DNA of 64,000 nucleotides from Escherichia phage ECp13: sequence record PP274704.1; one strand, 5' to 3'. The notes under the pieces are model-generated. The model ran no database searches and had not been told where the DNA came from. It saw only the letters and a program-made list of their open reading frames with translations. The position numbers were made by a program, and so were the translations under genes. Positions 2,728 to 62,600 of the stretch are shown piece after piece (the stretch's first letter is position 1; each line of letters starts with the position of its first letter).

Positions 2728-2729
2728 GA

Positions 2730-3362: not shown

Positions 3363-3369
3363 GGAAAAT

Positions 3370-3720: not shown

Positions 3721-3754
3721 GATAATAAAATTTTAATGAAATTGAGGATAATGT

Positions 3755-4565: not shown

Positions 4566-4643
4566 TTGATATCCTCTATGCTTTAAGATAGATCTTCAAA
4601 TATTATGATATAATAGATCTATGAATTGAGCTAAGAGGTGAAA

Positions 4644-5201
4644 ATGTCAGAAACTAAGCCTAAATATAATTACGTAAACAATAAAGAGCTTTTACAAGCT
4701 ATTATTGATTGGAAAACAGAATTAGCAAATAATAAAGACCCAAATAAAGTAGTTCGTCAGAATGATACTATCGGATTAGCCATTATGCTTATTGCAGAAG
4801 GCTTATCTAAACGTTTCAACTTTTCAGGATACACCCAATCCTGGAAACAAGAAATGATTGCAGATGGTATAGAAGCTTCTATTAAGGGGCTTCATAATTT
4901 TGATGAAACGAAATATAAAAACCCACATGCATATATAACTCAAGCTTGTTTTAATGCATTCGTCCAACGTATTAAAAAAGAACGTAAGGAAGTTGCAAAG
5001 AAATACAGTTACTTCGTTCACAATGTCTATGACAGTCGTGACGACGATATGGTTGCGTTAGTGGATGAAACTTTTATTCAAGACATCTACGATAAAATGA
5101 CGCATTACGAAGAATCAACCTATAGAACACCGGGGGCTGAAAAGAAAAGTGTTGTAGACGATTCTCCTAGTTTGGATTTTTTATATGAGGCTAACGATTA
5201 A
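4644..5201 (+). CDS. 55: Late-transcription sigma factor gp55
   Basis: 185 aa from ATG 4644 ([23 protein letters not shown]...), matches remembered T4 gp55 N-terminus and length. Confidence 0.9.
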
Positions 5202-5403
5202 CCTCTCCGGATTCTTGGAAGAAATACCTGAAGTTGAAGCTATTCCCTATTTACTTAAAATGTATCTCAGGGAAGTTTTAGCTCTTGACATTGATATTGA
5301 TCCAGAAAATCCGTATGATACCGCTTTTAAATCTAATGGTGTAGAATTAAACTATCGGTATCATTTAACAGATGATGATTTTTATTTTATATTAGAGAAA
5401 TAA
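5185..5403 (+). CDS. Hypothetical protein (72 aa)
   Basis: ORF track; overlaps 3' end of gene 55. Confidence 0.45.
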
Positions 5404-5404
5404 T

Positions 5405-5722
5405 ATGACTGATAAACCCGAAATTAATGATGAAGTGGAAAAGCTTATTTCTTCTATTGAAGAAAAGAACCGTCTTGAAGCAGAAAGAAAAGCAAATAAG
5501 TTATTGTCTAAAAACAAACGCGAACTGAACCGTCTTTATAAGCACGCTCAGATTGCAGCTGAAAACAATAATTTTGCTCAATACGAATATGCTATCAAGA
5601 AAAGTCGGGATATTCTAAAACAGCCATATAACGATGAACTCATTAGTATTCTTTGGAAGACTACTAGATCGCAGATTGAGGATATGATTGATGCTTACAC
5701 ACGTAAAATTCAAGCGTCTTAA
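5405..5722 (+). CDS. Hypothetical protein (105 aa), predicted coiled coil
   Basis: ORF track. Confidence 0.55.
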   Translation: MTDKPEINDEVEKLISSIEEKNRLEAERKANKLLSKNKRELNRLYKHAQIAAENNNFAQYEYAIKKSRDILKQPYNDELISILWKTTRSQIEDMIDAYTRKIQAS

Positions 5723-5894
5723 AATTAATGCAGGATTTACTGAATCTTTGAATGGTCATCTTTGCGTGAAAATTTCTGAAAAAGAATACCATGATAGTTC
5801 AATTAAAGAAGTTAATCCTCCTATTGTAAGAGCAGACCCTAATATGAAAGTGTGGGTTGATTCCTATCAAGTCAAAAAATGGTGGCAACTGTGA
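5691..5894 (+). CDS. Hypothetical protein (67 aa from ATG)
   Basis: ORF track 5688 start is TTG; ATG at 5691. Confidence 0.4.
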   Translation: MLTHVKFKRLKINAGFTESLNGHLCVKISEKEYHDSSIKEVNPPIVRADPNMKVWVDSYQVKKWWQL

Positions 5895-5897
5895 AAG

Positions 5898-6071
5898 ATG
5901 AACACCCAGACTTCTGAAATAGATTATAATAAAATTCGTTCCTCTAAAGTAGAAATGATGAGACGCTTTAAAGAGTCTCATGATAAAGCTAAAGCAGAAG
6001 GAACTATAACATATAAGCGTATAAAATTTAGAAGCTCTAATGAGCCTCTGTATGGTGTATTATGCGGATAG
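5898..6071 (+). CDS. Hypothetical protein (57 aa)
   Basis: ATG ORF ending at hairpin GGAGC-UUCG-GCUCC; below ORF-track cut-off. Confidence 0.35.
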   Translation: MNTQTSEIDYNKIRSSKVEMMRRFKESHDKAKAEGTITYKRIKFRSSNEPLYGVLCG

Positions 6072-6090
6072 GAGCTTCGGCTCCTATATT
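6069..6090 (+). terminator. Hairpin GGAGC-UUCG-GCUCC
   Basis: ggagcttcggctcc followed by tatatt. Confidence 0.45.
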
Positions 6091-6114
6091 GCTTTATAAA
6101 TTTTTGGTAAAATA
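6086..6114 (+). promoter_or_regulatory. Middle promoter: MotA box TGCTTTA, 11 nt, -10 TAAAAT
   Basis: tatTGCTTTAtaaatttttggTAAAATaaacc upstream of agt. Confidence 0.5.
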
Positions 6115-6137
6115 AACCAAAACAATGAGGATATTAA

Positions 6138-7340
6138 ATGAAAGTATGCATTTTTATGGCTCGAGGTCTTGAAGGTTGCGGCGTAACTAAATTTTCTCTC
6201 GAGCAGCGTGATTGGTTTATTAAAAATGGTCATGAAGTAACTTTGGTTTATGCTAAAGATAAATCATTTACCCGTAATTGCGCGCATGATTATAAATCAT
6301 TTTCAATTCCGGTTTTATTGGCAAAAGAATACGATAAAACACTTAAGCTGGTAAATGATTGTGATATTCTAATTATCAATTCAGTTCCTGCTACTTCAGT
6401 CGAAGAAGACACTATTAATAACTATAAAAAAATTATTGATAACATTAAACCTTCAGTTCGTGTTGTAGTTTATCAACATGACCATTCTTCTCTTTCTTTG
6501 CGCCGAAATTTGGGATTAGAAGAAACTGTTCGTCGAGCTGATGTTATTTTTAGTCATTCTGATAATGGCGATTTTAATAAAGTTTTGATGAAAGAATGGT
6601 ATCCAGAAACAGTTTCTCTGTTTGATGATATTGAAGAAGCACCGACTGTATACAACTTTCAGCCTCCTATGGATATTGCGAAGGTTCGATCAACCTACTG
6701 GAAAGATGTTTCTGAAATTAATATGAATGTCAACCGTTGGATCGGTCGTACGACTACATGGAAAGGTTTTTATCAGATGTTTGATTTTCACGAAAAACAT
6801 CTTAAACCTGCGGGATTAAGTACTATTATGGAAGGTCTGGAACGTTCTCCTGCGTTCATTCCTATTAAAGAAAAAGGAATTCCATACGAATATTATCGTC
6901 TTCATCAAGTAGACCAAATTAAAATTGCTCCTAATTTGCCGACGCAAATTCTCGACCGTTATGTAAATAGCGAAATGCTTGAACGCATGAGTAAATCCGG
7001 ATTTGGTTATCAGCTGAGTAAGTTGGATAAAAAATATCTACAACGTTCTTTAGAATATACTCATCTCGAGCTTGGTGCGTGTGGAACAATTCCAGTATTT
7101 TGGAAATCTACTGGCGAAAATTTAAAATTCCGTGTTGATAATACTCCGTTAATTTCTCATGATAGCGGTATCGTTTGGTTTGATGAAAATGACATGGAAT
7201 CAACATTTGAGCGTATTAAAGAACTGTCATCTGACCGAAATCTTTATGACCGTGAACGCGAAAAAGCTTATGAATTTTTGTATCAGCATCAAGATTCAAG
7301 CTTCTGCTTTAAAGAACAGTTTGACATTATTACAAAATAA
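6138..7340 (+). CDS. agt: DNA alpha-glucosyltransferase
   Basis: 400 aa; N-terminus MKVCIFMARGLEGCGVTKFSLEQ matches remembered T4 alpha-gt; between 55 and 47. Confidence 0.85.
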   Translation: MKVCIFMARGLEGCGVTKFSLEQRDWFIKNGHEVTLVYAKDKSFTRNCAHDYKSFSIPVLLAKEYDKTLKLVNDCDILIINSVPATSVEEDTINNYKKIIDNIKPSVRVVVYQHDHSSLSLRRNLGLEETVRRADVIFSHSDNGDFNKVLMKEWYPETVSLFDDIEEAPTVYNFQPPMDIAKVRSTYWKDVSEINMNVNRWIGRTTTWKGFYQMFDFHEKHLKPAGLSTIMEGLERSPAFIPIKEKGIPYEYYRLHQVDQIKIAPNLPTQILDRYVNSEMLERMSKSGFGYQLSKLDKKYLQRSLEYTHLELGACGTIPVFWKSTGENLKFRVDNTPLISHDSGIVWFDENDMESTFERIKELSSDRNLYDREREKAYEFLYQHQDSSFCFKEQFDIITK

Positions 7341-7358
7341 AGGGCTTCGGCCCTTTAG
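7340..7358 (+). terminator. Intrinsic terminator GGGC-UUCG-GCCC plus T-run
   Basis: agggcttcggcccttt directly after agt stop. Confidence 0.6.
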
Positions 7359-7379
7359 CTTTATACGGAGTTTGATATA

Positions 7380-7520
7380 ATGATATTTCTTGGATATGTG
7401 ATACTTTTTCTCGCGTTTTATCTATTCACTAGAGCATGTTGGATTGGGTTCTTTAGCACTCCAGATGGATTTATTTCAATAATTTTATTTTGCATTTCAA
7501 TGACGGTTCTTGATATATGA
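7380..7520 (+). CDS. Hypothetical hydrophobic peptide (46 aa)
   Basis: ATG ORF filling the agt-47 gap; stop overlaps gene 47 ATG. Confidence 0.35.
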   Translation: MIFLGYVILFLAFYLFTRACWIGFFSTPDGFISIILFCISMTVLDI

Positions 7521-8536
7521 AAATTTTAAATTTAGGTGATTGGCATTTAGGTGTTAAAGCCGACGACGAGTGGGTTCAATCCATTCAGTTGGATGGAATT
7601 AAACAAGCAATAGAATATTCTAAGAAAAACGGAATTACTACATGGATTCAATACGGCGATATTTTTGATGTGCGAAAAGCAATCACGCATAAAACTATGG
7701 AGTTCGCTCGTGAAATAGTTCAAATGCTTGATGATGCTGGTATTATCCTACATACTGTTGTAGGAAACCATGATATGCACTTTAAAAATACTTTAACTCC
7801 AAATGCTTCTACTGAGCTTTTGGCTAAATATCCTAATGTTAAAGTATATGATAAGCCTACTACAGTAGATTTTGACGGATGTTTGATTGATTTAATTCCT
7901 TGGATGTGTGAAGAAAATACTGGTGAAATTCTTGAACACATCAAAACTTCATCTGCTTCTTTTTGTGTTGGTCACTGGGAGCTGAATGGATTTTATTTTT
8001 ATAAAGGAATGAAATCTCACGGTCTTGAACCTGATTTCCTTAAGACTTATAAAGAAGTGTGGTCTGGTCACTTCCATACTATCTCTGAGGCTGCTAACGT
8101 CAGATATATTGGGACACCATGGACACTAACTGCGGGTGACGAGAATGACCCTCGCGGGTTCTGGATGTTTGATACAGAAACAGAACGAATGGAATTTATT
8201 CCAAACAACACTACCTGGCATCGTCGAATTCAATATCCATTTAAGGGAAAAATTGACTATAAAGATTTTACAAATCTATCAGTGCGTGTTATAGTAACTG
8301 AAGTAGACAAAAATCTAACGAAGTTCGAATCTGAACTAGAAAAAGTTGTGCATTCATTACGAGTTGTGTCAAAGATTGATAACTCTGTTGAGTCAGATGA
8401 TAGTGAAGAAGTTGAAGTTCAATCTCTTCAGACGTTAATGGAAGAATACATTAATGCAATTCCAGACATCACTGATTCTGATCGCGAAGCACTTATTCAA
8501 TATGCAAACCAGTTATATGTAGAGGCAACACAATGA
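7517..8536 (+). CDS. 47: Recombination endonuclease subunit gp47 (Mre11-like)
   Basis: 339 aa; phosphoesterase motifs GDWHLG and VVGNHDMH. Confidence 0.9.
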   Translation: MKILNLGDWHLGVKADDEWVQSIQLDGIKQAIEYSKKNGITTWIQYGDIFDVRKAITHKTMEFAREIVQMLDDAGIILHTVVGNHDMHFKNTLTPNASTELLAKYPNVKVYDKPTTVDFDGCLIDLIPWMCEENTGEILEHIKTSSASFCVGHWELNGFYFYKGMKSHGLEPDFLKTYKEVWSGHFHTISEAANVRYIGTPWTLTAGDENDPRGFWMFDTETERMEFIPNNTTWHRRIQYPFKGKIDYKDFTNLSVRVIVTEVDKNLTKFESELEKVVHSLRVVSKIDNSVESDDSEEVEVQSLQTLMEEYINAIPDITDSDREALIQYANQLYVEATQ

Positions 8537-8796
8537 CTTTTGATGAATTTAAAAATGTTATGATGAGTCAGCATTTTGAATGCGAAGTAAAAGATGATAT
8601 TGGGCATAAAGAAATTATTGAATATTGGTTTGAACCGCTAGAGGTTGAAGATAATTGTATTAAAAAGGTTACGGTCTGCACTGACTGGGCTGTATCTTTT
8701 AACTTCAACATTTTAGATAATGACACACCTAAATCATTACAAGATATGGCTGTATCTTGTATTAAGGATGCATATTGTGAAGTTTTCGACATTTGA
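8533..8796 (+). CDS. Hypothetical protein (87 aa)
   Basis: ORF track; ATGA overlap with gene 47 stop. Confidence 0.5.
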   Translation: MTFDEFKNVMMSQHFECEVKDDIGHKEIIEYWFEPLEVEDNCIKKVTVCTDWAVSFNFNILDNDTPKSLQDMAVSCIKDAYCEVFDI

Positions 8797-8983
8797 CATT
8801 AACGATGAATTCATAGCAAATATTGATTACACCGAAGAAGATTCTAGATATGTTGGAATAATTTATATCACATCAAAAGCAGCGCAAGGTGTTGTTTGCA
8901 TGGCTGAATTTGATGAATACTTTTTAGATTATGATGATATGATAGAATGGTCTAAAAGATACATTAAAAGGAATCTTTTGTGA
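8768..8983 (+). CDS. Hypothetical protein (71 aa from ATG 8768)
   Basis: ORF track 8720..8983; first ATG at 8768; stop overlaps gene 46 GTG start. Confidence 0.45.
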   Translation: MHIVKFSTFDINDEFIANIDYTEEDSRYVGIIYITSKAAQGVVCMAEFDEYFLDYDDMIEWSKRYIKRNLL

Positions 8984-10662
8984 AGAATTTTAAACTAAAC
9001 CGAGTTAGGTATCAAAATATAATGTCAGTAGGTGGAAATCCTATTGACATTCAACTAGATAAGGTTCAAAAAACTCTTATTACTGGACGAAATGGCGGTG
9101 GTAAGTCTACTATGTTAGAAGCCATCACATTTGGGCTTTTTGGCAAGCCATTCCGTGATGTAAAGAAAGGCCAATTAATAAACAGCACAAATAAGAAAGA
9201 ACTTTTAGTTGAACTGTGGATGGAATATGATGAGAAAAAGTACTATATCAAAAGAGGACAAAAACCAAATGTTTTCGAAATCACCGTTAACGGTACACGT
9301 CTTAATGAATCTGCCAGCAGTAAAGATTTCCAAGCAGAATTTGAACAGCTTATCGGAATGTCATATGCCAGTTTCAAGCAGATTGTTGTCCTTGGTACAG
9401 CAGGGTATACCCCTTTCATGGGTTTGTCGACCCCTGCACGAAGAAAGCTTGTGGAAGACCTGCTCGAGGTAGGAACATTAGCTGAAATGGATAAGCTTAA
9501 TAAAGCACTAATACGTGAATTAAATTCACAAAACCAAGTGCTTGATGTTAAAAAAGATAGTATTATCCAACAAATTAAAATATATAATGATAACGTTGAA
9601 CGCCAGAAAAAATTAACTGGTGATAACCTTACTCGTCTACAGAATATGTATGATGATTTGGCAAAAGAAGCCAGAACGTTAAAATCGGAAATAGAAGAAG
9701 CTAATGAAAGATTAGTTAATATTGTTTTGGATGAAGACCCGACTGATGCATTTAATAAAATCGGTCAAGAAGCATTTTTAATTAAATCAAAAATTGACTC
9801 GTATAATAAAGTCATTAATATGTATCACGAAGGTGGATTATGTCCAACCTGTTTGTCACAATTAAGTTCCGGTGATAAAGTTGTTTCTAAAATTAAAGAT
9901 AAAGTTTCTGAATGCACGCATTCGTTTGAACAGCTTTCAACACATCGTGATAATTTAAAAGTTCTCGTTGATGAATACCGAGATAATATTAAAACCCAAC
10001 AGACGTTGGCAAATGATATTCGCAATAAAAAGCAATCTCTAATCACGACTGTAGATAAAGCTAAAAAAGTTAAAGCAGCTATAGAAAAAGCATCATCTGA
10101 GTTTATTGACCATGCTGATGAAATAGCACTGCTTCAAGAAGAACTTGATAAAATTGTTAAGACAAAAACTAATTTAGTAATGGAAAAATACCACAGAGGA
10201 ATTTTGACTGATATGCTCAAAGATTCTGGTATTAAAGGTGCTATTATTAAAAAGTACATTCCATTATTTAATAAGCAGATTAACCATTATCTTAAAATAA
10301 TGGAAGCGGATTATGTGTTTACATTAGATGAAGAATTTAATGAGACAATTAAATCCCGCGGTCGTGAAGATTTTAGTTATGCTTCATTTAGTCAAGGCGA
10401 AAAAGCACGAATTGATATTGCTCTTTTATTTACTTGGCGTGATATTGCTGAAAAAGTTTCAGGTGTTAAAATAAACACATTAATTCTTGACGAAGTTTTT
10501 GATTCAGCAACTGATGTTGAAGGTGTAAAAGCTATTTCAACTATTTTAGATAGTTTAAAAAATACTAATGTTTTTGTTATTTCGCATAGAGACCATGATC
10601 CACAAGCATACGGTCAGCATCTTCAAATGAAGAAAGTTGGTCGATTTACTGTAATGGTTTAA
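8980..10662 (+). CDS. 46: Recombination ATPase gp46 (Rad50/SbcC-like), GTG start
   Basis: 560 aa; Walker A GRNGGGKST; zinc-hook CPTC within long coiled coil. Confidence 0.9.
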   Translation: MKNFKLNRVRYQNIMSVGGNPIDIQLDKVQKTLITGRNGGGKSTMLEAITFGLFGKPFRDVKKGQLINSTNKKELLVELWMEYDEKKYYIKRGQKPNVFEITVNGTRLNESASSKDFQAEFEQLIGMSYASFKQIVVLGTAGYTPFMGLSTPARRKLVEDLLEVGTLAEMDKLNKALIRELNSQNQVLDVKKDSIIQQIKIYNDNVERQKKLTGDNLTRLQNMYDDLAKEARTLKSEIEEANERLVNIVLDEDPTDAFNKIGQEAFLIKSKIDSYNKVINMYHEGGLCPTCLSQLSSGDKVVSKIKDKVSECTHSFEQLSTHRDNLKVLVDEYRDNIKTQQTLANDIRNKKQSLITTVDKAKKVKAAIEKASSEFIDHADEIALLQEELDKIVKTKTNLVMEKYHRGILTDMLKDSGIKGAIIKKYIPLFNKQINHYLKIMEADYVFTLDEEFNETIKSRGREDFSYASFSQGEKARIDIALLFTWRDIAEKVSGVKINTLILDEVFDSATDVEGVKAISTILDSLKNTNVFVISHRDHDPQAYGQHLQMKKVGRFTVMV

Positions 10663-13057: not shown

Positions 13058-13621
13058 ATGAGCTTATTTGAAGATGATATTCAATTAAACGAGCATCAAG
13101 TTGCTTGGTATTCAAAAGATTGGACAGCTGTCCAATCTGCTGCTGATTCTTTTAAGGAAAAAGCTGAAAATGAATTTTTTGAAATAATTGGAGCTATTAA
13201 TAATAAAACTAAATGCTCTATTGCTCAAAAAGATTATTCAAAATACATGGTTGAGAATGCATTATCACAATTTCCTGAATGCATGCCAGCTGTATATGCT
13301 ATGAATTTAATTGGATCAGGTTTAAGCGATGAAGCCCATTTTAATTATCTGATGGCTGCTGTTCCTCGTGGTAAAAGATATAGTAAATGGGCAAAACTGG
13401 TTGAAGATTCTACCGAAGTATTGATTATTAAGTTACTTGCTAAGCGGTATCAAGTTAATACAAATGATGCAATTAACTATAAATCAATTCTTACTAAAAA
13501 TGGAAAACTACCTTTAGTATTAAAAGAACTAAAAGGTTTAGTCACGGATGATTTTTTGAAAGAAGTGACTAAGAACGTAAAAGAACAGAAACAACTCAAA
13601 AAACTAGCATTGGAATGGTAA
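13058..13621 (+). CDS. 62: Clamp loader small subunit gp62
   Basis: 187 aa immediately after gp44. Confidence 0.85.
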
Positions 13622-17740: not shown

Positions 17741-18481
17741 ATGATTAATGACTCTTTGACAGTTGAAGAAACTCGTCTTCATTTGGGAATTGCGTTAAAG
17801 GAAAAAGATTTCGTAATTGATAAAACTGGCGTTAAAACTATTGAAATTATTGGCGCATCATTTGTAGCAGATGAACCGTTTATTTTTGGCGCTCTTAATG
17901 ATGAATACATTCAGCGTGAACTTGAATGGTATAAATCTAAAAGTTTGTTTGTTAAAGATATTCCGGGTGAAACACCGAAGATTTGGCAACAGGTAGCATC
18001 TTCTAAAGGCGAAATTAACTCGAATTATGGTTGGGCCATCTGGTCAGAAGATAACTATGCCCAGTATGATATGTGTTTAGCTGAACTTGGTCAAAATCCT
18101 GATTCTCGACGTGGTATCATGATTTATACTCGTCCATCCATGCAGTTTGACTACAATAAAGATGGTATGTCAGATTTCATGTGTACGAATACAGTACAGT
18201 ACCTGATTCGTGATAAGAAAGTCAATGCAGTAGTAAGCATGCGTTCAAATGACGTGGTCTTCGGATTCCGTAATGATTATGCATGGCAAAAATACGTACT
18301 AGATAAATTAGTATCTGATTTGAATGCAGGTGATTCAACTCGTCAGTATAAAGCAGGTTCCATTATATGGAATGTCGGGAGCCTTCATGTGTATTCCCGT
18401 CATTTTTATTTGGTTGACCATTGGTGGAAAACTGGCGAAACTCATATTGCGAAAAAAGATTATAACGGTGAGTGGAAATGA
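17741..18481 (+). CDS. 42: dCMP hydroxymethylase gp42
   Basis: 246 aa; thymidylate-synthase-like; position next to imm. Confidence 0.85.
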   Translation: MINDSLTVEETRLHLGIALKEKDFVIDKTGVKTIEIIGASFVADEPFIFGALNDEYIQRELEWYKSKSLFVKDIPGETPKIWQQVASSKGEINSNYGWAIWSEDNYAQYDMCLAELGQNPDSRRGIMIYTRPSMQFDYNKDGMSDFMCTNTVQYLIRDKKVNAVVSMRSNDVVFGFRNDYAWQKYVLDKLVSDLNAGDSTRQYKAGSIIWNVGSLHVYSRHFYLVDHWWKTGETHIAKKDYNGEWK

Positions 18482-19320
18482 TTCAATTCGTAATTCCAAG
18501 CTATCAACGCGTAGGGGCAGTTTCTGCCCTTGATATGTTTCCGACTGATTATGAACCTCATATTGTAGTACGTGAACACGAAGAAAAAGCTTATTATGAC
18601 GCTTACGGGTCTAGAGCTAAAATTATAACTATTCCTGATGATGTTAATGGAATTGCTGGTACTCGTAAAGCAATTACTGATATGTATGCAGGTCAACGAA
18701 TTTGGATGATTGATGATGATACTACTATTCGTATGAGTTCAATGCGAAAGAAAGATGATCGTCGCTGCGTAGATAAAATTAATCAGTTAACTCGTGAACA
18801 GTTCTATGAATTGATTCAATACGTTGAAGATGCCATGGATTGCGGGTATTATCACGGTCATGCTCGTCTACCTATTTTTAAAATTACTTCATCTTGGGGT
18901 AATTATCGTGAAAATTCATATGGATTCACGAATACTTGGTATGACCTCGGGAAACTTACAACAGAACAAATTGGGTATGGAAAAATTGATTTATGCGAAG
19001 ATATGTATGCATTTCTCAATTTAATTAATCAAGGTTATCCGCATTTGGCCTTGTTCAAATATCTGGTTGTGTCTGGAAAAGCACAGGCTCCTGGCGGATG
19101 TAGTTCAATTCGTAGTAATTCAAAACATAATAGAGCTCTTGAGCAAATCAATAGAGAGTTTCCAGAGCAAGCTCGTTGGAAAACATCGAATATCGAAAAG
19201 AGAAAATCGTTGGGTGAAGAAGACGAGCCATTAAAAGTTCTTCGCATGTGTGTTTCGCGCAAAGAAAAATCAGAAGCATTTCATAAGTTTAATGCTATTC
19301 ATCCAATAGCAGTTGATTAA
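18478..19320 (+). CDS. Putative DNA glycosyltransferase at the bgt locus (possibly T2/T6-type beta-glucosyl-HMC-alpha-glucosyltransferase)
   Basis: 280 aa from ATG 18478 (ATGA overlap with gene 42); DxD-like WMIDDDTTI; unlike the 351 aa T4 beta-gt as I recall it. Confidence 0.45.
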   Translation: MIQFVIPSYQRVGAVSALDMFPTDYEPHIVVREHEEKAYYDAYGSRAKIITIPDDVNGIAGTRKAITDMYAGQRIWMIDDDTTIRMSSMRKKDDRRCVDKINQLTREQFYELIQYVEDAMDCGYYHGHARLPIFKITSSWGNYRENSYGFTNTWYDLGKLTTEQIGYGKIDLCEDMYAFLNLINQGYPHLALFKYLVVSGKAQAPGGCSSIRSNSKHNRALEQINREFPEQARWKTSNIEKRKSLGEEDEPLKVLRMCVSRKEKSEAFHKFNAIHPIAVD

Positions 19321-19397
19321 TGCCTAAATTTATTGTGTTATAATTACTCTATCTTTAACCAGTGAGGAAAATATAATGTTGCCTATGGAAAAAATGA

Positions 19398-20579
19398 ATG
19401 TCTATTGCAGATTTAAAATCCCGTTTGATTAAAGCTTCCACTTCTAAAATGACTGCTGAACTGACTACATCTAAATTCTTTAATGAAAAGGATGTAATCC
19501 GTACAAAAATTCCAATGCTTAATATCGCTATTTCTGGTGCGATTGATGGTGGTATGCAGTCTGGTTTAACCATTTTTGCAGGTCCTTCTAAACACTTTAA
19601 ATCAAATATGTCTTTGACTATGGTTGCGGCGTATTTGAACAAATATCCTGACGCGGTATGTCTATTCTATGATAGCGAATTTGGTATTACTCCAGCTTAT
19701 TTGCGATCCATGGGAGTTGACCCGGAACGAGTAATTCATACACCAATCCAGTCAGTTGAACAGCTGAAAATTGATATGGTGAATCAGCTTGAAGCTATTG
19801 AGCGTGGTGAAAAAGTTATTGTATTCATCGACTCAATTGGTAATATGGCTTCTAAGAAAGAAACGGAAGATGCCTTGAATGAAAAATCTGTGGCAGATAT
19901 GACTCGTGCTAAATCACTGAAGTCATTATTCCGTATTGTTACTCCTTATTTTAGTATTAAAAACATTCCATGCGTTGCGGTTAACCATACAATTGAAACA
20001 ATTGAAATGTTTAGTAAAACCGTGATGACAGGTGGTACAGGCGTAATGTATTCGGCTGATACCGTATTCATTATCGGTAAGCGCCAGATTAAAGATGGTT
20101 CTGATCTTCAGGGGTATCAATTTGTTCTAAATGTAGAAAAATCTCGTACCGTTAAAGAAAAAAGTAAATTCTTTATTGATGTTAAATTTGACGGTGGTAT
20201 CGATCCTTATTCTGGATTGTTAGATATGGCTCTTGAATTAGGATTTGTGGTAAAACCTAAAAATGGCTGGTATGCTCGTGAATTTCTTGACGAAGAAACC
20301 GGCGAGATGATTCGCGAAGAAAAATCTTGGCGTGCAAAAGATACCAACTGCACTACATTCTGGGGTCCTTTATTTAAGCATCAGCCATTCCGAGACGCTA
20401 TTAAACGTGCTTATCAGTTAGGTGCTATTGATAGTAATGAAATTGTTGAAGCTGAAGTTGATGAATTGATTAACTCAAAGGTTGAAAAATTTAAATCTCC
20501 AGAAAGTAAAAGTAAATCAGCAGCTGATTTAGAAACTGACCTAGATCAGTTAAGTGATATGGAAGAATTTAATGAATAA
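19398..20579 (+). CDS. uvsX: Recombinase UvsX (RecA-like)
   Basis: 393 aa; Walker A GPSKHFKS; close match to remembered T4 UvsX. Confidence 0.9.
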   Translation: MSIADLKSRLIKASTSKMTAELTTSKFFNEKDVIRTKIPMLNIAISGAIDGGMQSGLTIFAGPSKHFKSNMSLTMVAAYLNKYPDAVCLFYDSEFGITPAYLRSMGVDPERVIHTPIQSVEQLKIDMVNQLEAIERGEKVIVFIDSIGNMASKKETEDALNEKSVADMTRAKSLKSLFRIVTPYFSIKNIPCVAVNHTIETIEMFSKTVMTGGTGVMYSADTVFIIGKRQIKDGSDLQGYQFVLNVEKSRTVKEKSKFFIDVKFDGGIDPYSGLLDMALELGFVVKPKNGWYAREFLDEETGEMIREEKSWRAKDTNCTTFWGPLFKHQPFRDAIKRAYQLGAIDSNEIVEAEVDELINSKVEKFKSPESKSKSAADLETDLDQLSDMEEFNE

Positions 20580-24771: not shown

Positions 24772-24968
24772 ATTAACCCAACTAAAGCAAATGCTAAATC
24801 TACGAATGTATCAAGAGTAATTACTGGAATATTAACGCCATGAGCAATAGCAATTGGCGATAAAACAAAATTCCAGAGTAAAATTCCTACCATAGCAGAA
24901 ATAGTAAAAGCTATACGTTTTTTATTACCTTTTATGGCATTAACAAGTGCCATTAATTTTTGTACCAT
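24768..24968 (-). CDS. Hypothetical two-helix membrane protein (66 aa) on the opposite strand
   Basis: Minus-strand ATG preceded by AAGGAGG; convergent with gene 61. Confidence 0.5.
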   Translation of the reverse strand: MVQKLMALVNAIKGNKKRIAFTISAMVGILLWNFVLSPIAIAHGVNIPVITLDTFVDLAFALVGLI

Positions 24969-24977
24969 ATGTCCTCC

Positions 24978-25006
24978 TTATTGCTTTATATATTTATTGT
25001 ATAATT
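24978..25006 (+). promoter_or_regulatory. Middle promoter: MotA box TGCTTTA, 11 nt, TATAAT
   Basis: ttaTTGCTTTAtatatttattgTATAAT upstream of gene 56. Confidence 0.5.
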
Positions 25007-25039
25007 AATCTACTAACCCATGAATTGAAAGGAAAAATA

Positions 25040-25557
25040 ATGGCTTACTTTAATGAATGTAGTCAACTGATTGAAGGCGCTGATAAAGCTCAAAATGAAT
25101 ACTGGGATATTCTCGGCGATGAAAAAGACCCGCTGCAGGTTATGCTTGATATGCAGAAATCTCTGCAGGTTCGTTTAGCTAAAGATAAACCTGAATATAA
25201 CCGTCATCCTGATGATTTGGCTACTGCAGGTGAAGTTGTTGATTGGCTGCGTAATCAGAAAGATTATATTGATGATGAATTCCGCGAACTTCTGACTTCT
25301 CTTGGTGGTATGAGCAATGGCGAAAAAGATGCATCTGCTGTATGGAAGCTTGGAAGTCGCAACACGGTGAACGTCGTGAAACTCTGATTACTGACTTATC
25401 TCCACAAGACCAGTTGGAAATTAAATTCGAAATGATTGATATTCTTCATTTCGTTCTGAACATGTTCCAAGGTCTCGGTCTTACGGCTGAAGAAATCTTT
25501 AAACTTTATTATCTGAAAAATGCTGAAAACTTCGCTCGTCAAGACCGAGGTTATTAA
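25040..25557 (+). pseudogene. 56: dCTPase/dUTPase gp56, interrupted by apparent 1-nt deletion near 25346-25350
   Basis: Frame A ends ...ASAVWK then runs to a stop at 25387; frame B resumes (E)AWKSQ...ARQDRGY; the two pieces sum to ~172 aa, the intact length. Confidence 0.6.
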
Positions 25558-25591
25558 TATAAACGACGGCTTAAAAGCTGTGAGAATTTAT

Positions 25592-25599
25592 TATAAATA
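25592..25599 (+). promoter_or_regulatory. Late promoter TATAAATA
   Basis: ttaTTATAAATAgtc about 30 nt upstream of soc. Confidence 0.55.
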
Positions 25600-35915: not shown

Positions 35916-36092
35916 ATGCCAATGTATGATTATAAATGCCAATCCGAAGATTGCGGGCATGAATATGAAAAAATTAAAAAGATTTCTGAACGAGAAAATG
36001 ATGTTTGTCCTAAATGTCATCGTCTGTCTACTCGTCGGCCTTCTGCTCCTAAGCATGTGAATGGTGGATTTTACGACTTACTTAAAGGGTGA
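35916..36092 (+). CDS. Small zinc-ribbon protein (58 aa), FmdB-like CxxC...CxxC
   Basis: MPMYDYKCQSEDCGHEYE...DVCPKCH; ATG follows previous stop. Confidence 0.45.
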   Translation: MPMYDYKCQSEDCGHEYEKIKKISERENDVCPKCHRLSTRRPSAPKHVNGGFYDLLKG

Positions 36093-36094
36093 TT

Positions 36095-36466
36095 ATGTTT
36101 AAAATCGGTAAGAAATATCGTGTTCGTGAAGGTGAAGAAAAGAAATATCTGCTTTCTTCTATTTATAGGAATGGTTCTATTAATGCCGTAATATCTACAA
36201 GCGAATTTATCGTTGAAGATATGAAAGGTAATAATGTTACAATGATTAGTACAGCATCTGGAAATGACGGAAAAATTCTTCACAGTTTTCAGAGTAATGT
36301 TCTAATATATGATGAAGAATTTGACTTCTTCGAAGAAGTTCCTGAAGATTTTAGTTTTGAATGCACTATCACTATGAAATCTGGCGACCCTCTTTCTTTT
36401 ACGGTTAAAGATGAAAGAAGCCGCTTGAGAATTATTAGTCTCCTTCAAGCCATTAAATTTGAGTGA
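36095..36466 (+). CDS. Hypothetical protein (123 aa)
   Basis: ORF track (GTG 36089 / ATG 36095). Confidence 0.5.
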   Translation: MFKIGKKYRVREGEEKKYLLSSIYRNGSINAVISTSEFIVEDMKGNNVTMISTASGNDGKILHSFQSNVLIYDEEFDFFEEVPEDFSFECTITMKSGDPLSFTVKDERSRLRIISLLQAIKFE

Positions 36467-36470
36467 AATT

Positions 36471-36731
36471 ATGAAATATGTTAATCGTTCTATCGCGGCA
36501 TTAGTATTAGCAGTGTCTTTAGCAGGATGTACTGATGCTGATAATGCAACCAAAGTTTTGTCTTCAAGTGGGTTTACTAATATTGAAATCACTGGATACA
36601 ATTGGTTCGGTTGCTCTGAAAATGATTTCCAACATACTGGATTTCGTGCTATTGGACCTACCGGGCAGAAAGTAGAAGGAACCGTATGTTCTGGTCTATT
36701 CTTCAAGGATTCGACTATCCGTTTTAAATAA
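36471..36731 (+). CDS. Putative lipoprotein (86 aa)
   Basis: Signal peptide with lipobox LAGC; ATG 36471. Confidence 0.5.
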   Translation: MKYVNRSIAALVLAVSLAGCTDADNATKVLSSSGFTNIEITGYNWFGCSENDFQHTGFRAIGPTGQKVEGTVCSGLFFKDSTIRFK

Positions 36732-36750
36732 AAGGCCTTCGGGCCTTTAG
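36731..36750 (+). terminator. Hairpin AGGCC-UUCG-GGCCU plus U-rich tail
   Basis: aaaggccttcgggccttt. Confidence 0.55.
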
Positions 36751-36800
36751 CTTTATGATTACCGGAGTATAATATTCCCGAAACCAAACGAGGATAAGTG

Positions 36801-38618
36801 ATGATTAAGAATGAAATTAAAATTCTGAGCGATATTGAACATATCAAAAAGCGTAGCGGCATGTACATTGGCTCTTCCGCTAATGAAATGCATGAGCGCT
36901 TTCTGTTTGGTAAATGGGAAAGTGTTCAGTATGTACCTGGTCTTGTTAAGCTTATTGATGAAATTATCGATAACTCAGTAGATGAAGGTATTCGTACTAA
37001 GTTTAAATTCGCGAATAAAATTAATGTTACTATCAAAAACAATCAAGTAACAGTTGAAGATAACGGTCGTGGTATTCCACAAGCGATGGTTAAAACACCT
37101 ACTGGTGAAGAAATTCCCGGTCCTGTTGCCGCCTGGACTATTCCAAAAGCAGGTGGTAACTTCGGTGATGATAAAGAACGTGTCACTGGCGGTATGAACG
37201 GTGTTGGTTCTAGTTTAACTAACATTTTTTCTGTGATGTTTGTCGGTGAAACTGGCGACGGTCAAAATAATATTGTAGTTCGTTGTTCAAATGGCATGGA
37301 AAATAAATCATGGGAAGATATTCCCGGAAAATGGAAAGGAACTCGTGTTACTTTCATTCCTGATTTTATGTCATTTGAAACTAATGAGCTGTCTCAAGTT
37401 TATCTTGACATTACACTGGATCGTCTCCAGACACTTGCAGTAGTTTATCCTGATATTCAATTTACCTTTAATGGTAAAAAGGTTCAGGGTAATTTTAAGA
37501 AATATGCACGCCAATATGATGAGCATGCTATTGTTCAAGAACAAGAAAATTGTTCTATTGCGGTTGGTCGTTCACCAGATGGTTTTCGTCAATTAACATA
37601 CGTCAATAACATTCATACTAAGAATGGTGGCCATCACATTGACTGCGTTATGGATGATATTTGTGAAGACCTTATTCCACAAATCAAACGTAAGTTCAAA
37701 ATTGATGTAACTAAAGCACGTGTTAAAGAATGTTTGACTATCGTTATGTTTGTTCGTGATATGAAAAACATGCGATTTGATTCTCAGACTAAAGAGCGTT
37801 TGACTTCTCCATTTGGTGAAATTCGTAGTCATATTCAGCTTGATGCTAAAAAGATTTCACGTGCTATTTTAAATAATGAAGCAATTTTAATGCCAATTAT
37901 TGAAGCTGCCTTGGCTCGTAAATTGGCAGCAGAAAAAGCAGCAGAAACTAAAGCAGCTAAAAAGGCTTCTAAAGCTAAGGTTCATAAACATATTAAAGCG
38001 AATCTTTGTGGTAAAGACGCTGACACTACTCTTTTCTTGACTGAGGGTGATTCTGCTATCGGATATCTTATTGATGTTCGTGATAAAGAACTTCATGGTG
38101 GTTATCCATTGCGTGGTAAAGTTCTCAACAGTTGGGGTATGTCATATGCTGATATGCTTAAAAACAAAGAACTGTTTGATATTTGTGCAATTACTGGATT
38201 AGTTCTTGGTGAAAAAGCTGAAAACTTGAATTATCATAATATTGCTATTATGACCGATGCTGACCATGATGGTCTAGGAAGCATTTATCCTTCTCTGCTC
38301 GGATTTTTTAGTAATTGGCCAGAACTGTTTGAACAAGGAAGAATTCGCTTCGTCAAAACTCCTGTAATCATCGCTCAGGTCGGTAAAAAACAAGAATGGT
38401 TTTATACAGTCGCTGAATATGAGAGTGCCAAAGATGCTCTACCTAAACATAGCATCCGTTATATTAAGGGACTTGGCTCTTTGGAAAAATCTGAATATCG
38501 TGAGATGATTCAAAACCCAGTATATGATGTTGTTAAACTTCCTGAGAACTGGAAAGAGCTTTTTGAAATGCTCATGGGAGATAATGCTGACCTTCGTAAA
38601 GAATGGATGAGCCAATAG
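36801..38618 (+). CDS. 39: Topoisomerase II large subunit gp39, uninterrupted full-length form (includes the part T4 encodes as gene 60)
   Basis: 605 aa; GHKL ATPase N-domain; TOPRIM LTEGDSAIGY; PLRGK. Confidence 0.9.
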   Translation: MIKNEIKILSDIEHIKKRSGMYIGSSANEMHERFLFGKWESVQYVPGLVKLIDEIIDNSVDEGIRTKFKFANKINVTIKNNQVTVEDNGRGIPQAMVKTPTGEEIPGPVAAWTIPKAGGNFGDDKERVTGGMNGVGSSLTNIFSVMFVGETGDGQNNIVVRCSNGMENKSWEDIPGKWKGTRVTFIPDFMSFETNELSQVYLDITLDRLQTLAVVYPDIQFTFNGKKVQGNFKKYARQYDEHAIVQEQENCSIAVGRSPDGFRQLTYVNNIHTKNGGHHIDCVMDDICEDLIPQIKRKFKIDVTKARVKECLTIVMFVRDMKNMRFDSQTKERLTSPFGEIRSHIQLDAKKISRAILNNEAILMPIIEAALARKLAAEKAAETKAAKKASKAKVHKHIKANLCGKDADTTLFLTEGDSAIGYLIDVRDKELHGGYPLRGKVLNSWGMSYADMLKNKELFDICAITGLVLGEKAENLNYHNIAIMTDADHDGLGSIYPSLLGFFSNWPELFEQGRIRFVKTPVIIAQVGKKQEWFYTVAEYESAKDALPKHSIRYIKGLGSLEKSEYREMIQNPVYDVVKLPENWKELFEMLMGDNADLRKEWMSQ

Positions 38619-38650
38619 TTTACTTTACCACAAGGATGTGGTATAATTAA
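38610..38650 (+). promoter_or_regulatory. Early promoter (GTTTAC, 18 nt, TATAAT)
   Basis: tagtttactttaccacaaggatgtggtataat. Confidence 0.55.
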
Positions 38651-38672
38651 TTGGGCAAATGAGGATATTGAA

Positions 38673-38876
38673 ATGAAATCATATAGAGTAAATTTAGAAC
38701 TTTTTGATAAAGCAGTTCATCGAGAATATAGAATCATTCAACGCTTTTTCGATATGGGAGAAGCTGAAGAGTTTAAAAACCGCTTTAAGGATATTAGAGA
38801 TAAAATTCAATCCGACACCGCAACTAAAGATGAACTACTAGAAGTTGCTGAAGTTATTAAACGCAATATGAATTAA
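38673..38876 (+). CDS. Hypothetical protein (67 aa), rIIA.1 position
   Basis: ORF track; GAGGATATTG SD. Confidence 0.5.
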
Positions 38877-38886
38877 TGAGGAAATT

Positions 38887-41063
38887 ATGATTATCACCAC
38901 TGAAAAAGAAACAATTCTTGGTAATGGTTCTAAATCAAAAGCATTTAGCATCACAGCATCTCCTAAAGTATTCAAAATTCTGTCATCTGATTTGTATACA
39001 AACAAGATTCGCGCAGTAGTCCGTGAATTGATTACCAACATGATTGATGCCCATGCTCTCAATGGAAATCCTGAAAAATTTATCATTCAAGTTCCAGGAC
39101 GATTAGATCCGCGATTTGTTTGTCGAGATTTTGGTCCAGGTATGAGCGATTTTGATATTCAAGGTGATGATAATTCTCCTGGGTTGTATAATTCATACTT
39201 TAGTTCATCTAAGGCTGAATCTAACGATTTCATTGGTGGATTTGGTTTAGGTTCTAAATCTCCGTTTAGTTATACTGATACATTTAGTATTACTTCATAT
39301 CATAAAGGCGAAATTCGTGGTTATGTAGCTTACATGGATGGCGATGGTCCACAAATTAAACCTACATTTGTAAAAGAAATGGGTCCAGATGATAAAACTG
39401 GTATTGAAATCGTAGTTCCAGTTGAAGAAAAAGACTTTAGAAACTTTGCTTATGAAGTTTCTTATATCATGCGACCATTCAAAGATTTAGCTATCATTAA
39501 TGGTCTTGACCGCGAAATTGATTATTTTCCGGATTTTGATGACTATTACGGCGTAAATCCAGAAAGATACTGGCCAGATCGTGGTGGATTGTATGCTATC
39601 TATGGCGGTATTGTTTATCCTATCGATGGTGTTATTAGAGACCGTAACTGGTTAAGCATCCGTAATGAAGTGAATTACATTAAGTTTCCAATGGGTTCAC
39701 TTGATATTGCTCCATCACGCGAAGCTCTTTCACTAGATGATCGTACTCGTAAAAATATTATTGAGCGTGTTAAAGAGCTTAGTGAGAAGGCATTCAATGA
39801 AGATGTAAAACGATTTAAAGAATCTACATCTCCTCGTCATACATACCGTGAATTGATGAAGATGGGATATTCTGCTCGAGATTATATGATTAGTAATTCA
39901 GTCAAATTTACGACTAAAAATCTGTCATATAAGAAGATGCAAAGCATGTTTGAACCAGATAGTAAGCTATGCAATGCAGGAGTTGTGTATGAAGTAAATC
40001 TTGACCCTCGACTGAAACGCATTAAGCAAAGTCATGAAACTTCAGCCGTTGCATCAAGTTATCGTCTGTTCGGTATTAATACAACAAAAATTAATATCGT
40101 TATTGATAATATTAAAAATCGCGTTAATATTGTCCGTGGATTAGCGCATGCGTTAGATGATAAAGAATTTAATAACACTTTAAATATTCATCACAACGAG
40201 CGTCTTCTGTTTATTAATCCGGAAGTAGAATCGCAGATTGATTTACTCCCTGATATTATGGCAATGTTTGAAAGTGATGAAGTTAACTTCATCACTTGTC
40301 AGAAATTGAAGCTTTAGTTAAAAGTTATATTCCGAAGGCAGTTAAAAGTAAAGCTCCTCGTCCTAAAGCTGCTACTGCGTTTAAGTTTGAAATTAAAGAC
40401 GGGCGCTGGGAAAAAGAGGAACTGTTTACACTTACGTCAGAAGCAGATGAAATTACTGGTTATGTAGCATACATGCATCGTTCTGATATTTTCTCTATGG
40501 ATGGTACTACATCGCTCTGTAATCCGTCTACGAGTATTTTGACTCGTATGGCTAATCTTATTGGCATTAATGAATTTTATGTTATTCGTCCACTTTTGCA
40601 GAAAAAGGTAAAAGAACTTGGTCAGTGCCAATGTATTTTTGAAACTCTACGTGATTTATATGTAGATGCTTTTGATGATGTAGATTATGATAAGTATGTA
40701 GGTTATTCAAGTTCAGCTAAACGATATATTGATAAAATTATCAAGTATCCTGAGTTAGATTTTATGATGAAGTACTTCAGTGTAGATGAAGTTTCCGAAG
40801 AATATACACGACTCGCTAATATGGTTAGTTCATTACAGGGTGTATATTTCAACTGTGGAAAAGATACCATCGGTCATGACATCTGGACAGTAACTAATCT
40901 TTTTGATGTATTATCAAACAATGCTTCAAAAAACAGTGATAAAATGGTTACTGAGTTTACTAAGAAATTCCGTATTGTTTCCGACTTCATCGGTTATCGC
41001 AACTCTTTAAGTGATGATGAAGTTTCCCAAATCGCTAAAACTATGAAGGCCCTTGCGGCCTAA
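38887..41063 (+). pseudogene. rIIA: rIIA, split by apparent 1-nt deletion between 40284 and 40296
   Basis: ORF 38887..40317 (476 aa) plus ORF 40296..41063 (255 aa) together match remembered 725 aa rIIA; frame changes at ...FESDEV / [10 protein letters not shown]. Confidence 0.7.
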
Positions 41064-41074
41064 TAAGGAAAATT

Positions 41075-45371: not shown

Positions 45372-46700
45372 ATGCAACTGAATAATCGCGATTTAAAAAG
45401 TATCATTGATAATGAAGCATTGGCTTATGCTATGTACACGGTTGAAAATCGTGCTATCCCAAATATGATTGATGGATTTAAGCCAGTTCAACGATTTGTT
45501 ATTGCTCGAGCTCTTGATTTGGCACGAGGAAATAAAGATAAGTTTCACAAACTCGCTTCTATTGCAGGTGGTGTAGCAGACCTTGGATATCATCATGGTG
45601 AAAACTCTGCACAAGATGCTGGGGCTTTGATGGCTAATACTTGGAATAATAACTTTCCTTTGTTAGACGGTCAAGGAAACTTTGGTTCTCGTACCGTTCA
45701 AAAAGCAGCGGCAAGTCGTTATATTTTTGCTCGTGTAAGTAAAAATTTCTATAACGTATATAAAGATACTGAATATGCTCCGGTACATCAAGATAAAGAA
45801 CACATTCCGCCTGCTTTCTATTTGCCTATTATTCCTACTGTTCTTCTTAATGGTGTTTCCGGTATTGCAACTGGTTATGCAACTTACATTCTTCCTCATA
45901 GTGTTTCTTCTGTCAAGAAAGCTGTATTGCAAGCTCTTCAAGGAAAGAAAGTAACTAAACCGAAGGTAGAATTCCCAGAATTTCGCGGTGAAGTCGTTGA
46001 AATTGACGGTCAATATGAAATTCGTGGAACATACAAGTTTACTTCACGAACTCAAATGCATATCACTGAGATTCCATATAAGTATGATCGTGAAACTTAC
46101 GTGAGTAAAATCTTAGACCCGCTTGAAGATAAAGGTTTCATTACGTGGGATGATGCTTGCGGTGAGCATGGTTTTGGCTTTAAAGTTAAATTCCGTAAAG
46201 AATACTCTTTGAGTGATAACGAAGAAGAACGTCATGCAAAAATTATGAAAGACTTCGGGTTGATTGAGCGTCGTTCCCAGAATATTACCGTTATTAATGA
46301 GAAAGGAAAACTACAAGTTTACGATAACGTAGTTGATTTAATCAAAGACTTCGTTGAAGTTCGTAAAACTTATGTCCAAAAACGAATTGATAACAAAATC
46401 AAAGAAACTGAATCAGCATTTCGTTTAGCCTTTGCCAAGGCACATTTCATTAAGAAAGTAATTTCAGGTGAAATTGTTGTACAGGGTAAAACTCGCAAAG
46501 AACTGACCGAAGAACTTTCTAAAATTGATATGTATTCTTCTTATGTTGATAAACTAGTTGGAATGAATATTTTTCATATGACTTCCGACGAAGCAAAGAA
46601 ACTTGCTGAAGAAGCTAAAGCTAAAAAAGAAGAAAACGAATATTGGAAAACTACTGATGTAGTTACAGAATACACCAAAGATTTAGAGGAAATCAAATGA
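45372..46700 (+). CDS. 52: Topoisomerase II medium subunit gp52 (GyrA/ParC-like)
   Basis: 442 aa; MQLNNRDLKSIIDNEALAYAMYTVENRAIPNMIDGFKPVQRF matches remembered T4 gp52. Confidence 0.9.
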   Translation: MQLNNRDLKSIIDNEALAYAMYTVENRAIPNMIDGFKPVQRFVIARALDLARGNKDKFHKLASIAGGVADLGYHHGENSAQDAGALMANTWNNNFPLLDGQGNFGSRTVQKAAASRYIFARVSKNFYNVYKDTEYAPVHQDKEHIPPAFYLPIIPTVLLNGVSGIATGYATYILPHSVSSVKKAVLQALQGKKVTKPKVEFPEFRGEVVEIDGQYEIRGTYKFTSRTQMHITEIPYKYDRETYVSKILDPLEDKGFITWDDACGEHGFGFKVKFRKEYSLSDNEEERHAKIMKDFGLIERRSQNITVINEKGKLQVYDNVVDLIKDFVEVRKTYVQKRIDNKIKETESAFRLAFAKAHFIKKVISGEIVVQGKTRKELTEELSKIDMYSSYVDKLVGMNIFHMTSDEAKKLAEEAKAKKEENEYWKTTDVVTEYTKDLEEIK

Positions 46701-50388: not shown

Positions 50389-54511
<4,123 letters not shown>

Positions 54512-62501: not shown

Positions 62502-62509
62502 TTGCTTAT

Positions 62510-62517
62510 TATAAATA
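62510..62517 (+). promoter_or_regulatory. Late promoter TATAAATA upstream of gene 32
   Basis: attgcttatTATAAATAgat. Confidence 0.45.
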
Positions 62518-62534
62518 GATTATAATTATCTCAC

Positions 62535-62600
62535 TGACCAGCTATGAGGTCATACATCGTCATAGCACCAACTGTTAATTAAATTAAAAAGGAAATAAAA
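62535..62600 (+). promoter_or_regulatory. Gene 32 autoregulatory operator: H-type pseudoknot plus A/U-rich gp32 binding tract
   Basis: TGACC(62535-39) pairs GGTCA(62548-52); GCTATGA(62541-47) pairs TCATAGC(62560-66); then ttaattaaattaaaaaggaaataaaaATG. Confidence 0.65.

Follow-up and report, generated by a model that had tools for sequence, protein, structure and literature searches.

An unsplit gene 39 encodes the topoisomerase II large subunit in the T4-related phage ECp13

Gene 39 and its neighbours

The DNA analysed here is a 64-kb window of the approximately 167-kb genome of Escherichia phage ECp13. Gene 39 occupies positions 36801–38618 of this window as an uninterrupted open reading frame of 605 codons (1818 nt), from an ATG at 36801 to a stop codon at 38616–38618; this strand (+) also carries all the features of gene 39 described below, the promoter-like site that follows it, rIIA.1, rIIA and gene 52. 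The original prediction of a single full-length gene of 605 codons is upheld by this frame and by the alignments to T4, T2 and T6, but the end at 38876 that it gave is that of the next gene, rIIA.1. A GAGGA ribosome-binding site lies 5' of the ATG, which is the start used by the gp39 proteins of T2, T4 and T6 (MIKNEIK...); there is an alternative in-frame GTG at 36798, one codon 5' of it. The reading frame, its alignments, Pfam and a match to PDB entry 8ylu (chain C) identify the product as the GyrB/ParE-like large subunit of a phage type IIA topoisomerase, of the unsplit "39+60" type.

The N-terminal part of the protein contains a GHKL ATPase domain (AAs 47–149, nt 36939–37247; Pfam PF02518 HATPase_c, E = 2e-9, above the cut-off), in which the N-box, G1 (DxGxG) and G2 (GxxGxG) motifs of that fold are all present; the GHKL motifs read EIIDNSVDE (AAs 54–62), DNGRGIP (AAs 87–93) and GGMNGVG (AAs 130–136). 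It is followed by a transducer domain (AAs 250–384, nt 37548–37952; Pfam PF00204 DNA_gyraseB, E = 1.4e-13), whose QTK loop has its lysine (QTKERL, AAs 329–334), and by a short Ala/Lys-rich linker at about AAs 372–400. The first half of the TOPRIM region (nt 38043–38120, placed by motif positions and by alignment with T4) includes EGDSA (AAs 415–419, nt 38043–38057) and PLRGK (AAs 436–440, nt 38106–38120), and the acidic TOPRIM motif IMTDADHDG lies at AAs 483–491 (DADHDG at AAs 486–491). The glutamate of EGDSA and the DxD acidic cluster thus share one reading frame, and a complete TOPRIM is present on one polypeptide. The C-terminal TOPRIM-associated domain (AAs 519–604, nt 38355–38612; Pfam PF16898 TOPRIM_C and gp60 alignment) has its T4 counterpart in the product of gene 60. 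Pfam and the motifs agree with the earlier claim that ATPase and TOPRIM regions lie in one frame; EGDSA and PLRGK, which had been offered as the signs of fusion, do not serve as such, since both sit before AA 473, in the first half of TOPRIM that T4 also encodes in its gene 39. Judged from the alignments, the parts diagnostic of the unsplit state are those encoded by gene 60 in T4, IMTDADHDG and the C-terminal tail.

Downstream of gene 39 there is a spacer of 54 nt, then rIIA.1 (67 AAs, nt 38673–38876; Pfam PF24210 T4_RIIA1, E = 2e-33 over its full length), which has the same position in T2, T4 and T6, then a spacer of 10 nt and rIIA. The predicted order of gene 39, a 67-codon frame and rIIA is therefore correct (starts at 38673 and 38887), with the difference that rIIA is interrupted by a 1-nt deletion. 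The 54-nt spacer includes a promoter-like site, TTTACT-17-TATAAT with an extended -10 TG (nt 38619–38647); it is the best consensus match of the region, and may be an early-type promoter placed directly after gene 39. Gene 52, which encodes the GyrA-like partner of gp39 (442 AAs, nt 45372–46700; Pfam DNA_topoisoIV, E = 9e-77, and tblastn), has a product 99.8% identical to T4 gp52 by tblastn. On the upstream side, an extra 125-AA frame (nt 36089–36466) lies between genes 39.2 and 39.1; it is missing from T4, and its counterpart in T2 and T6 is annotated as RB32ORF005c-like. The homologue of 39.1 has the N-terminus MKYVNRSIAALVLAVSLAGC, a lipoprotein-type signal, and the annotated T4 39.1 is shorter.

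Comparison with the split genes of T4

Positions 1–9000 of NC_000866, with their annotation, served as the T4 reference, in which gp39 has 516 AAs and gp60 has 160 AAs when joined across the 50-nt gap. In blastp alignments, AAs 1–473 of the ECp13 protein correspond to T4 gp39 1–473 (466/473 identical, 99%) and AAs 472–605 to T4 gp60 27–160 (128/134 identical, 96%); the segments that the T4 proteins have in common with it are gp39 1–473 and gp60 47–160. These alignments, and those with T2 and T6 below, came out as had been predicted, and the C-terminus is clearly related to gp60; this gp60-like part is 134 AAs long, not the roughly 90 AAs first given for it. Neither the 43-AA C-terminal extension of T4 gp39 (AAs 474–516) nor the unique N-terminus of gp60 (AAs 1–26; 26–30 AAs) had a counterpart in the window by blastp or tblastn.

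The DNA alignment breaks at the same place. By blastn, T4 5661–3911 matches window positions 36469–38218 (95.8% identity) and T4 2793–1 matches 38283–41074 (95.7%), and between these two blocks T4 has 1117 nt and ECp13 has 64 nt (38219–38282). The 1117 nt of T4 comprise the C-terminal extension of gp39, mobA/60.1, the 5' end of gene 60 and the 50-nt coding gap. Thus the coding DNA that flanks the insertion in T4 (genes 39, mobA/60.1 and 60) is 96% identical to that of the window, whereas the 43-AA gp39 extension, the mobA/60.1 frames, the gp60 N-terminus, the take-off GGA-TAG, the hairpin and the 50-nt gap are T4 features which the window lacks.

All searches for the T4 elements covered the 64-kb window, and the absence of mobA and gene 60 refers to that window; a stray copy of either outside it would be redundant. 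When T4 positions 2780–3790 were compared with it, blastn-short found only chance 13–14-mers besides the homologous 3' edge, and tblastx found no match beyond that edge. With tblastn, T4 gp39 matched a single locus and gp60 likewise a single one, inside gene 39, so that no second copy of gene 60 was found in the 64 kb; the 60.1 protein had no match in the same 64 kb. No mobA HNH endonuclease gene or pseudogene lies between the topoisomerase parts in the window. The take-off hairpin pattern had no match in the 64 kb even with up to 3 mismatches, and the combination of a take-off GGA plus stop, a hairpin and a 50-nt gap with a landing GGA was found neither at gene 39 nor elsewhere in the window. 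The prediction that gene 60 and mobA are absent thus holds across the 64 kb in the blastn-short, tblastx and tblastn searches, and the search for the bypass take-off sequence, which had been proposed with it, turned up no match and no separate gene 60 homologue there.

The 64-nt segment at the MobA insertion point

The segment at 38219–38282 is the stretch that T4 replaces by the 1117-nt mobA/gene 60 cassette, as delimited by the blastn break points, a four-phage alignment and the published 64-nt deletion. In the four-phage alignment it is identical to T2 at 63 of 64 nt, the single difference being synonymous, and by this sequence likeness it is a T2-type uninvaded MobA homing site. A codon-level comparison places the DADHDG acidic motif and the leucine after it at 38256–38276 (GAT GCT GAC CAT GAT GGT / CTA). 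Where T4 has its coding gap, its sequence is GAT GGA (TAG ... 50 nt ... GGA) TTA GGT TCT, whereas ECp13 reads GAT GGT CTA GGA AGC continuously, with no stop codon and no hairpin, and with GGT where T4 has the take-off GGA. Near the bypass point the window differs from the element-borne copy in T4 at 17 of 54 positions (about 69% identity), nearly all of them synonymous, and identity rises to about 96% in the flanks; this agrees with the diverged homologous stretch, "homR", that the MobA element has been reported to supply (bioRxiv 10.1101/2022.08.31.505936).

The same study describes a MobA element of 1097–1106 nt which deletes 55–75 nt of the parental gene (64 nt in phage HY01), adds a C-terminal extension of about 44 AAs to ORF1, gives ORF2 an N-terminal extension of 44–46 AAs together with the bypass cassette, and separates parental parts of 472 and 117 AAs (bioRxiv 10.1101/2022.08.31.505936). 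The 64 deleted nt and the 472- and 117-AA parts match the break points found here quantitatively, and so support the reading of the ECp13 gene as unsplit. The T2 site is a published MobA substrate for which a homing experiment has been reported, and the MobA nick lies approximately 20 nt 5' of the point where the bypass is inserted (bioRxiv 10.1101/2022.08.31.505936). From that experiment and the 63/64 identity to T2 we infer that 38219–38282 would be a functional MobA target, susceptible to nicking and homing; if a mobA+ phage infects the same cell, a nick about 20 nt upstream of 38273/38274 could lead to acquisition of the cassette.

Unsplit homologues in other phages and in solved structures

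The gp39 of ECp13 differs from that of T2 at one AA (F70L; 604/605 identical, gene DNA 95.8% identical), from that of T6 at two (D173T and Q526H; 603/605, DNA 96.5%) and from that of Sfk20, whose gene is the closest DNA match, at three (P100L, D173T and A543S; 602/605, DNA 98.6%). The T2 and T6 genes are also 1818 nt long and encode 605 AAs that align without gaps; they differ from the ECp13 gene at 64–76 nt, mostly synonymously (95.8–96.5% nt identity). Both phages have gene 39 of 1818 nt, a 54-nt spacer, rIIA.1 of 204 nt, a 10-nt spacer and rIIA of 2178 nt, with spacers identical in length to those of the window and with the same neighbours, 39.1 upstream and rIIA.1 and rIIA downstream. The earlier assignment to a T2/T6/RB-type arrangement is thus confirmed in gene length, spacers and neighbours by T2 and T6, and RB14 annotates its unsplit gene as "60plus39".

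A PDB search gave alignments over the whole length of the ECp13 protein with T6 gp39 in 8ylu (chain C) and five other entries, whereas an artificial T4 gp39-gp60 fusion matched it in two stretches; cryo-EM structures of T6 gp39/gp52 include 8ylu, 8yo1 and 8yo5. Full-length matches were also found to structures of human TOP2A/B, yeast Top2, ParE and GyrB (E = 1e-59 to 1e-36). The bacterial GyrB/ParE proteins and the N-terminal halves of the eukaryotic Topo II enzymes have in common with ECp13 gp39 the domain order GHKL, transducer, TOPRIM, tail; unlike them, it belongs to a phage, has a short linker and pairs with a small GyrA-like gp52. T6 gp39 has been assayed and its structure solved; the T4/T6 topoisomerase relaxes rather than supercoils DNA, and a T4-specific TOPRIM insertion of about 70 AAs has little effect on activity (PMC11461880). 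The enzyme has two subunits in T2 and T6 (gp39 and gp52) and three in T4, where the mobA insertion has split it (bioRxiv 10.1101/2022.08.31.505936; PMC11461880).

The frequency of the unsplit state was estimated with a 161-nt junction query (38170–38330) against a phage collection. A contiguous, unsplit junction was present in 449 of the 492 matching phage records, and the other 43 match only the 3' 48 nt (T4 type). The reciprocal query, the 1117-nt T4 segment, matched 43 records, which include T4 strains, RB55, RB59, HY01, vB_EcoM_112 and pSe_SNUABM_01. A figure of 493 unsplit genomes, taken from 493 colinear records, was rejected because pieces up to 1.9 kb apart had been joined in that count, so that records with the cassette were included. 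An unsplit gene 39 is thus the majority state among the T4 relatives and is already annotated as such.

Taxonomic position of ECp13

The phage had also been placed outside T4 sensu stricto, and comparison of the whole window agrees. The best matches over 25 kb are the Shigella phages ESh26 and Sfk20 (97.2–97.5% identity, 98–100% coverage), and the best relatives are Sfk20, pSs-1 and ESh26, of which Sfk20 is classified as Tequatrovirus pss1. T4 aligns with 88% of the window at a mean identity of 94.0%. The ICTV convention for a species is at least about 95% nucleotide identity over genome length, and the T4 values over the 64 kb (94.0% identity, 88% coverage) fall short of it. By tblastn, the 64-kb window lacks T4 mobB, mobC, segA, segF, segG, I-TevII, dam, β-glucosyltransferase and the T4-type gp38; its gp38 is a T2-type adhesin (Pfam GP38, E = 6e-72), and it has a different glycosyltransferase frame at 18472–19320. 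By sequence comparison over the window, this phage belongs to Tequatrovirus, where the pSs-1/Sfk20 group, and not T4, is nearest to it. The lack of the cassette rules out wild-type T4; since the cassette is mobile and is also present in non-T4 species (HY01, vB_EcoM_112 and pSe_SNUABM_01), its absence is not in itself a taxonomic character.

Frameshift and palindrome in rIIA

The rIIA gene (nt 38887–41063) is 2177 nt long instead of 2178 and is split by a -1 frameshift, as seen from the list of open reading frames, the comparison with T4 and a frame scan; its pieces are a 476-AA frame at 38887–40317 and a 255-codon frame at 40296–41063 in another frame. Positions 40272–40297 read AAGTGATGAAGTTAAC-TTCATCACTT, where T4, T2, T6 and Sfk20 all have AAGTGATGAAGTTAACATTCATTATTT. 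There are three private changes, the loss of one A and two T-to-C substitutions, all in the right arm, and together they make perfect what is otherwise an imperfect inverted repeat; the resulting 26-nt palindrome (40272–40297) is the longest perfect one in the window. These changes lower the predicted energy of the hairpin, computed with RNA parameters, from -9.4 to -17.6 kcal/mol. The private changes were found in none of the 492 phage records, and the 26-nt palindrome had no match in IMG/VR. The second-longest palindrome of the window (13117–13138) was considered as another private change and dismissed as unremarkable, as it is largely conserved in T4.

Mutation templated by a quasipalindrome through template switching was first proposed by Ripley with data on T4 rIIB and yeast CYC1 (PMC7202029), and the rIIA changes look like a complex mutation of this type. 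That three changes are coordinated argues for a real mutation over a base-calling error. Widespread indel errors as the source of the frameshift were rejected, since a scan of 83 T4-homologous reading frames showed frame changes in no more than two, rIIA and gene 56. Provided that the rIIA changes do not stem from a sequencing error, the isolate would be a spontaneous rII mutant with a textbook example of the template-switch mechanism in its genome.

Compared with Sfk20, gene 56 (dCTPase), which is essential in T4, has lost 1 nt at 25348 (GCC to GC) and is thereby split into two frames. Although gene 39 is intact, the 1-nt deletions in rIIA and gene 56 mean that the sequence may hold some errors or mutations.

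Origin of the unsplit gene

We conclude that 36801–38618 is almost certainly an intact T-even gene 39 which was never split (or has been restored). The continuity of its frame, its homology, the missing cassette and the T2 identity of the site are direct observations; its function and history are judged from homologues. The 605-AA subunit, with GHKL ATPase, transducer, complete TOPRIM and C-terminal tail, would combine with gp52 (45372–46700) into a two-subunit-type (A2B2) type IIA topoisomerase, gp39(2)gp52(2), by homology to T6; from the 603/605 identity to the characterised T6 gp39 we infer this A2B2 assembly and ATP-dependent relaxation of DNA as its probable activity. In T4, a MobA homing-endonuclease element of about 1.1 kb cuts TOPRIM between the Glu motif (EGDSA) and the DxD motif (DADHD), and brings with it the C-terminal extension of gp39, the new N-terminus of gp60 and the 50-nt bypass gap. 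As the element is missing from ECp13 and the 64-nt T2-type target is in place, translation of its gene 39 should be ordinary and colinear.

Conceivably the present gene is a reversion and not the primitive state: the MobA/bypass cassette would have been there in an ancestor, and either precise excision or recombination with an unsplit relative would have removed it. T-even phages recombine freely, which favours such a restoration, and an exchange with an unsplit phage would be traceless. For a clade of Aeromonas phages, moreover, a "hit and run" loss of the element has been described (bioRxiv 10.1101/2022.08.31.505936). The fused Topo2L of that clade is a single frame that keeps an insert derived from the CTE/NTE, however, and ECp13 gp39 has no such insertion: it has exactly 605 AAs and is colinear, without gaps, with T2 and T6. 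Against restoration there is also the 64-nt segment, which is of the T2 type (63/64) and not of the diverged T4 homR type (about 69% over 54 nt), as well as the fact that the unsplit gene is the majority state (449 of 492 records); we consider restoration very improbable. A single joint judgement was also formed on gene 39 as a restored site and the rIIA frameshift as a natural template-switch mutation, and that combination we hold to be possible but rather doubtful.

An artefact of assembly or annotation, in which the phage has the cassette and the sequence has collapsed or omitted it, is more improbable still, to the point of being negligible. The two single-base deletions elsewhere in the window do mean that the sequence is imperfect, or that the phage is a mutant. 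But the junction is in frame and encodes, codon for codon, the same protein as T2 and T6, the same structure is found in 449 independent records, and the window holds 64 nt that are missing from cassette-bearing genomes; collapse of a cassette could not create this T2-type sequence, and its presence makes an artefact very unlikely. A gene 39 that is intact and most probably was never split thus accounts for the locus.

Implications

For annotation, the best name of the frame is topoisomerase II large subunit (gp39, unsplit type), with no recoding event to annotate, and the genome can be assigned to the pSs-1/Sfk20-like Tequatrovirus group and not to T4. The finding is already known, and the unsplit gene is the common state: sequenced Tequatrovirus genomes that have it number about 450, it is the form of T2 and T6, and a structure of its product has been solved. 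It is the 39/60 split that is peculiar, to T4 and about 40 sequenced relatives, and a mobile homing-endonuclease cassette is its cause. Were the ECp13 site a restored one, its fully MobA-sensitive target would be a snapshot of the cycle of gain and loss of a homing element. With its T2-type site in place, this phage is predicted to act as the recipient of MobA-driven homing when infections are mixed.

Gene content relative to T4

Comparison of the whole window with phage T4 shows that all of the T4 homing endonuclease genes and introns that map to this span are missing; mobA, mobB, mobC, segA, segF, segG and I-TevII are all absent from it, as are the dam and β-glucosyltransferase genes (example window positions in the comparison are 339/342, 1618–1638, 6122–6147, 18464–19409, 24979–25000, 25520–25592 and 62502–62538). 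Where T4 carries segA and the β-glucosyltransferase gene, ECp13 has instead a different, glycosyltransferase-like ORF (18472–19320; Pfam TAGT).

Upstream of gene 39, an additional plus-strand ORF of 125 codons (36089–36466) lies between genes 39.2 and 39.1. Its product belongs to no Pfam family, and T4 has no counterpart, whereas those of T2 and T6 are annotated "similar to RB69ORF005c / RB32ORF005c". The adjacent 39.1 homologue (36471–36731, plus strand) encodes 86 amino acids counted from its ATG, with an N-terminal lipoprotein-type signal and lipobox (...LAVSLAGC...), while T4 39.1 is annotated as only 65 amino acids. Homologous T4 DNA continues further upstream, so the annotated T4 gene may, from the sequence, be too short at its upstream end. 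The T4 reference (NC_000866) also differs within gp39, where it reads MRLIRQTKERL and both ECp13 and T6 read MRFDSQTKERL; the differing residues, 326–328, directly precede the conserved QTK loop, and the mismatch may reflect a long-standing sequencing discrepancy in the record for T4.

The tail-fibre genes 38 and 37 occupy 50389–51180 and 51200–54511, both on the minus strand. The ECp13 gp38 is a tail-fibre adhesin of the T2/T6 type (Pfam GP38 and Gp38_N), unlike T4 gp38, which is of the assembly chaperone type, and no DNA match to T4 was found for the distal part of gp37 (1103 amino acids).

Frameshifts in gene 56 and rIIA

Among the 83 T4-homologous ORFs only gene 56 and rIIA have changes in frame. 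Gene 56 (25040–25557), which encodes the dCTPase/dUTPase and is essential in T4, lacks one nucleotide at 25348 relative to Shigella phage Sfk20 (GCC to GC), and this deletion splits it into ORFs 24947–25387 and 25342–25557; either a genuine mutation or an error in sequencing could account for the missing base.

The −1 frameshift in rIIA (38887–41063) lies at 40272–40297, is private to ECp13, and consists of three clustered changes in the same arm, the loss of one A and two T to C substitutions. Together the three produce a perfect 26-nucleotide palindrome, AAGTGATGAAGTTAACTTCATCACTT, from a quasipalindrome that is retained in T2, T4, T6 and Sfk20. No other perfect palindrome in the window is as long, and no match to this one was found in 492 phage records or in IMG/VR. 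Judged by sequence, the change looks like a Ripley-type template-switch mutation, a quasipalindrome-templated class first inferred from T4 rII mutants. If genuine, this frameshift would mean that the phage is an rIIA mutant with a truncated product of 476 amino acids.
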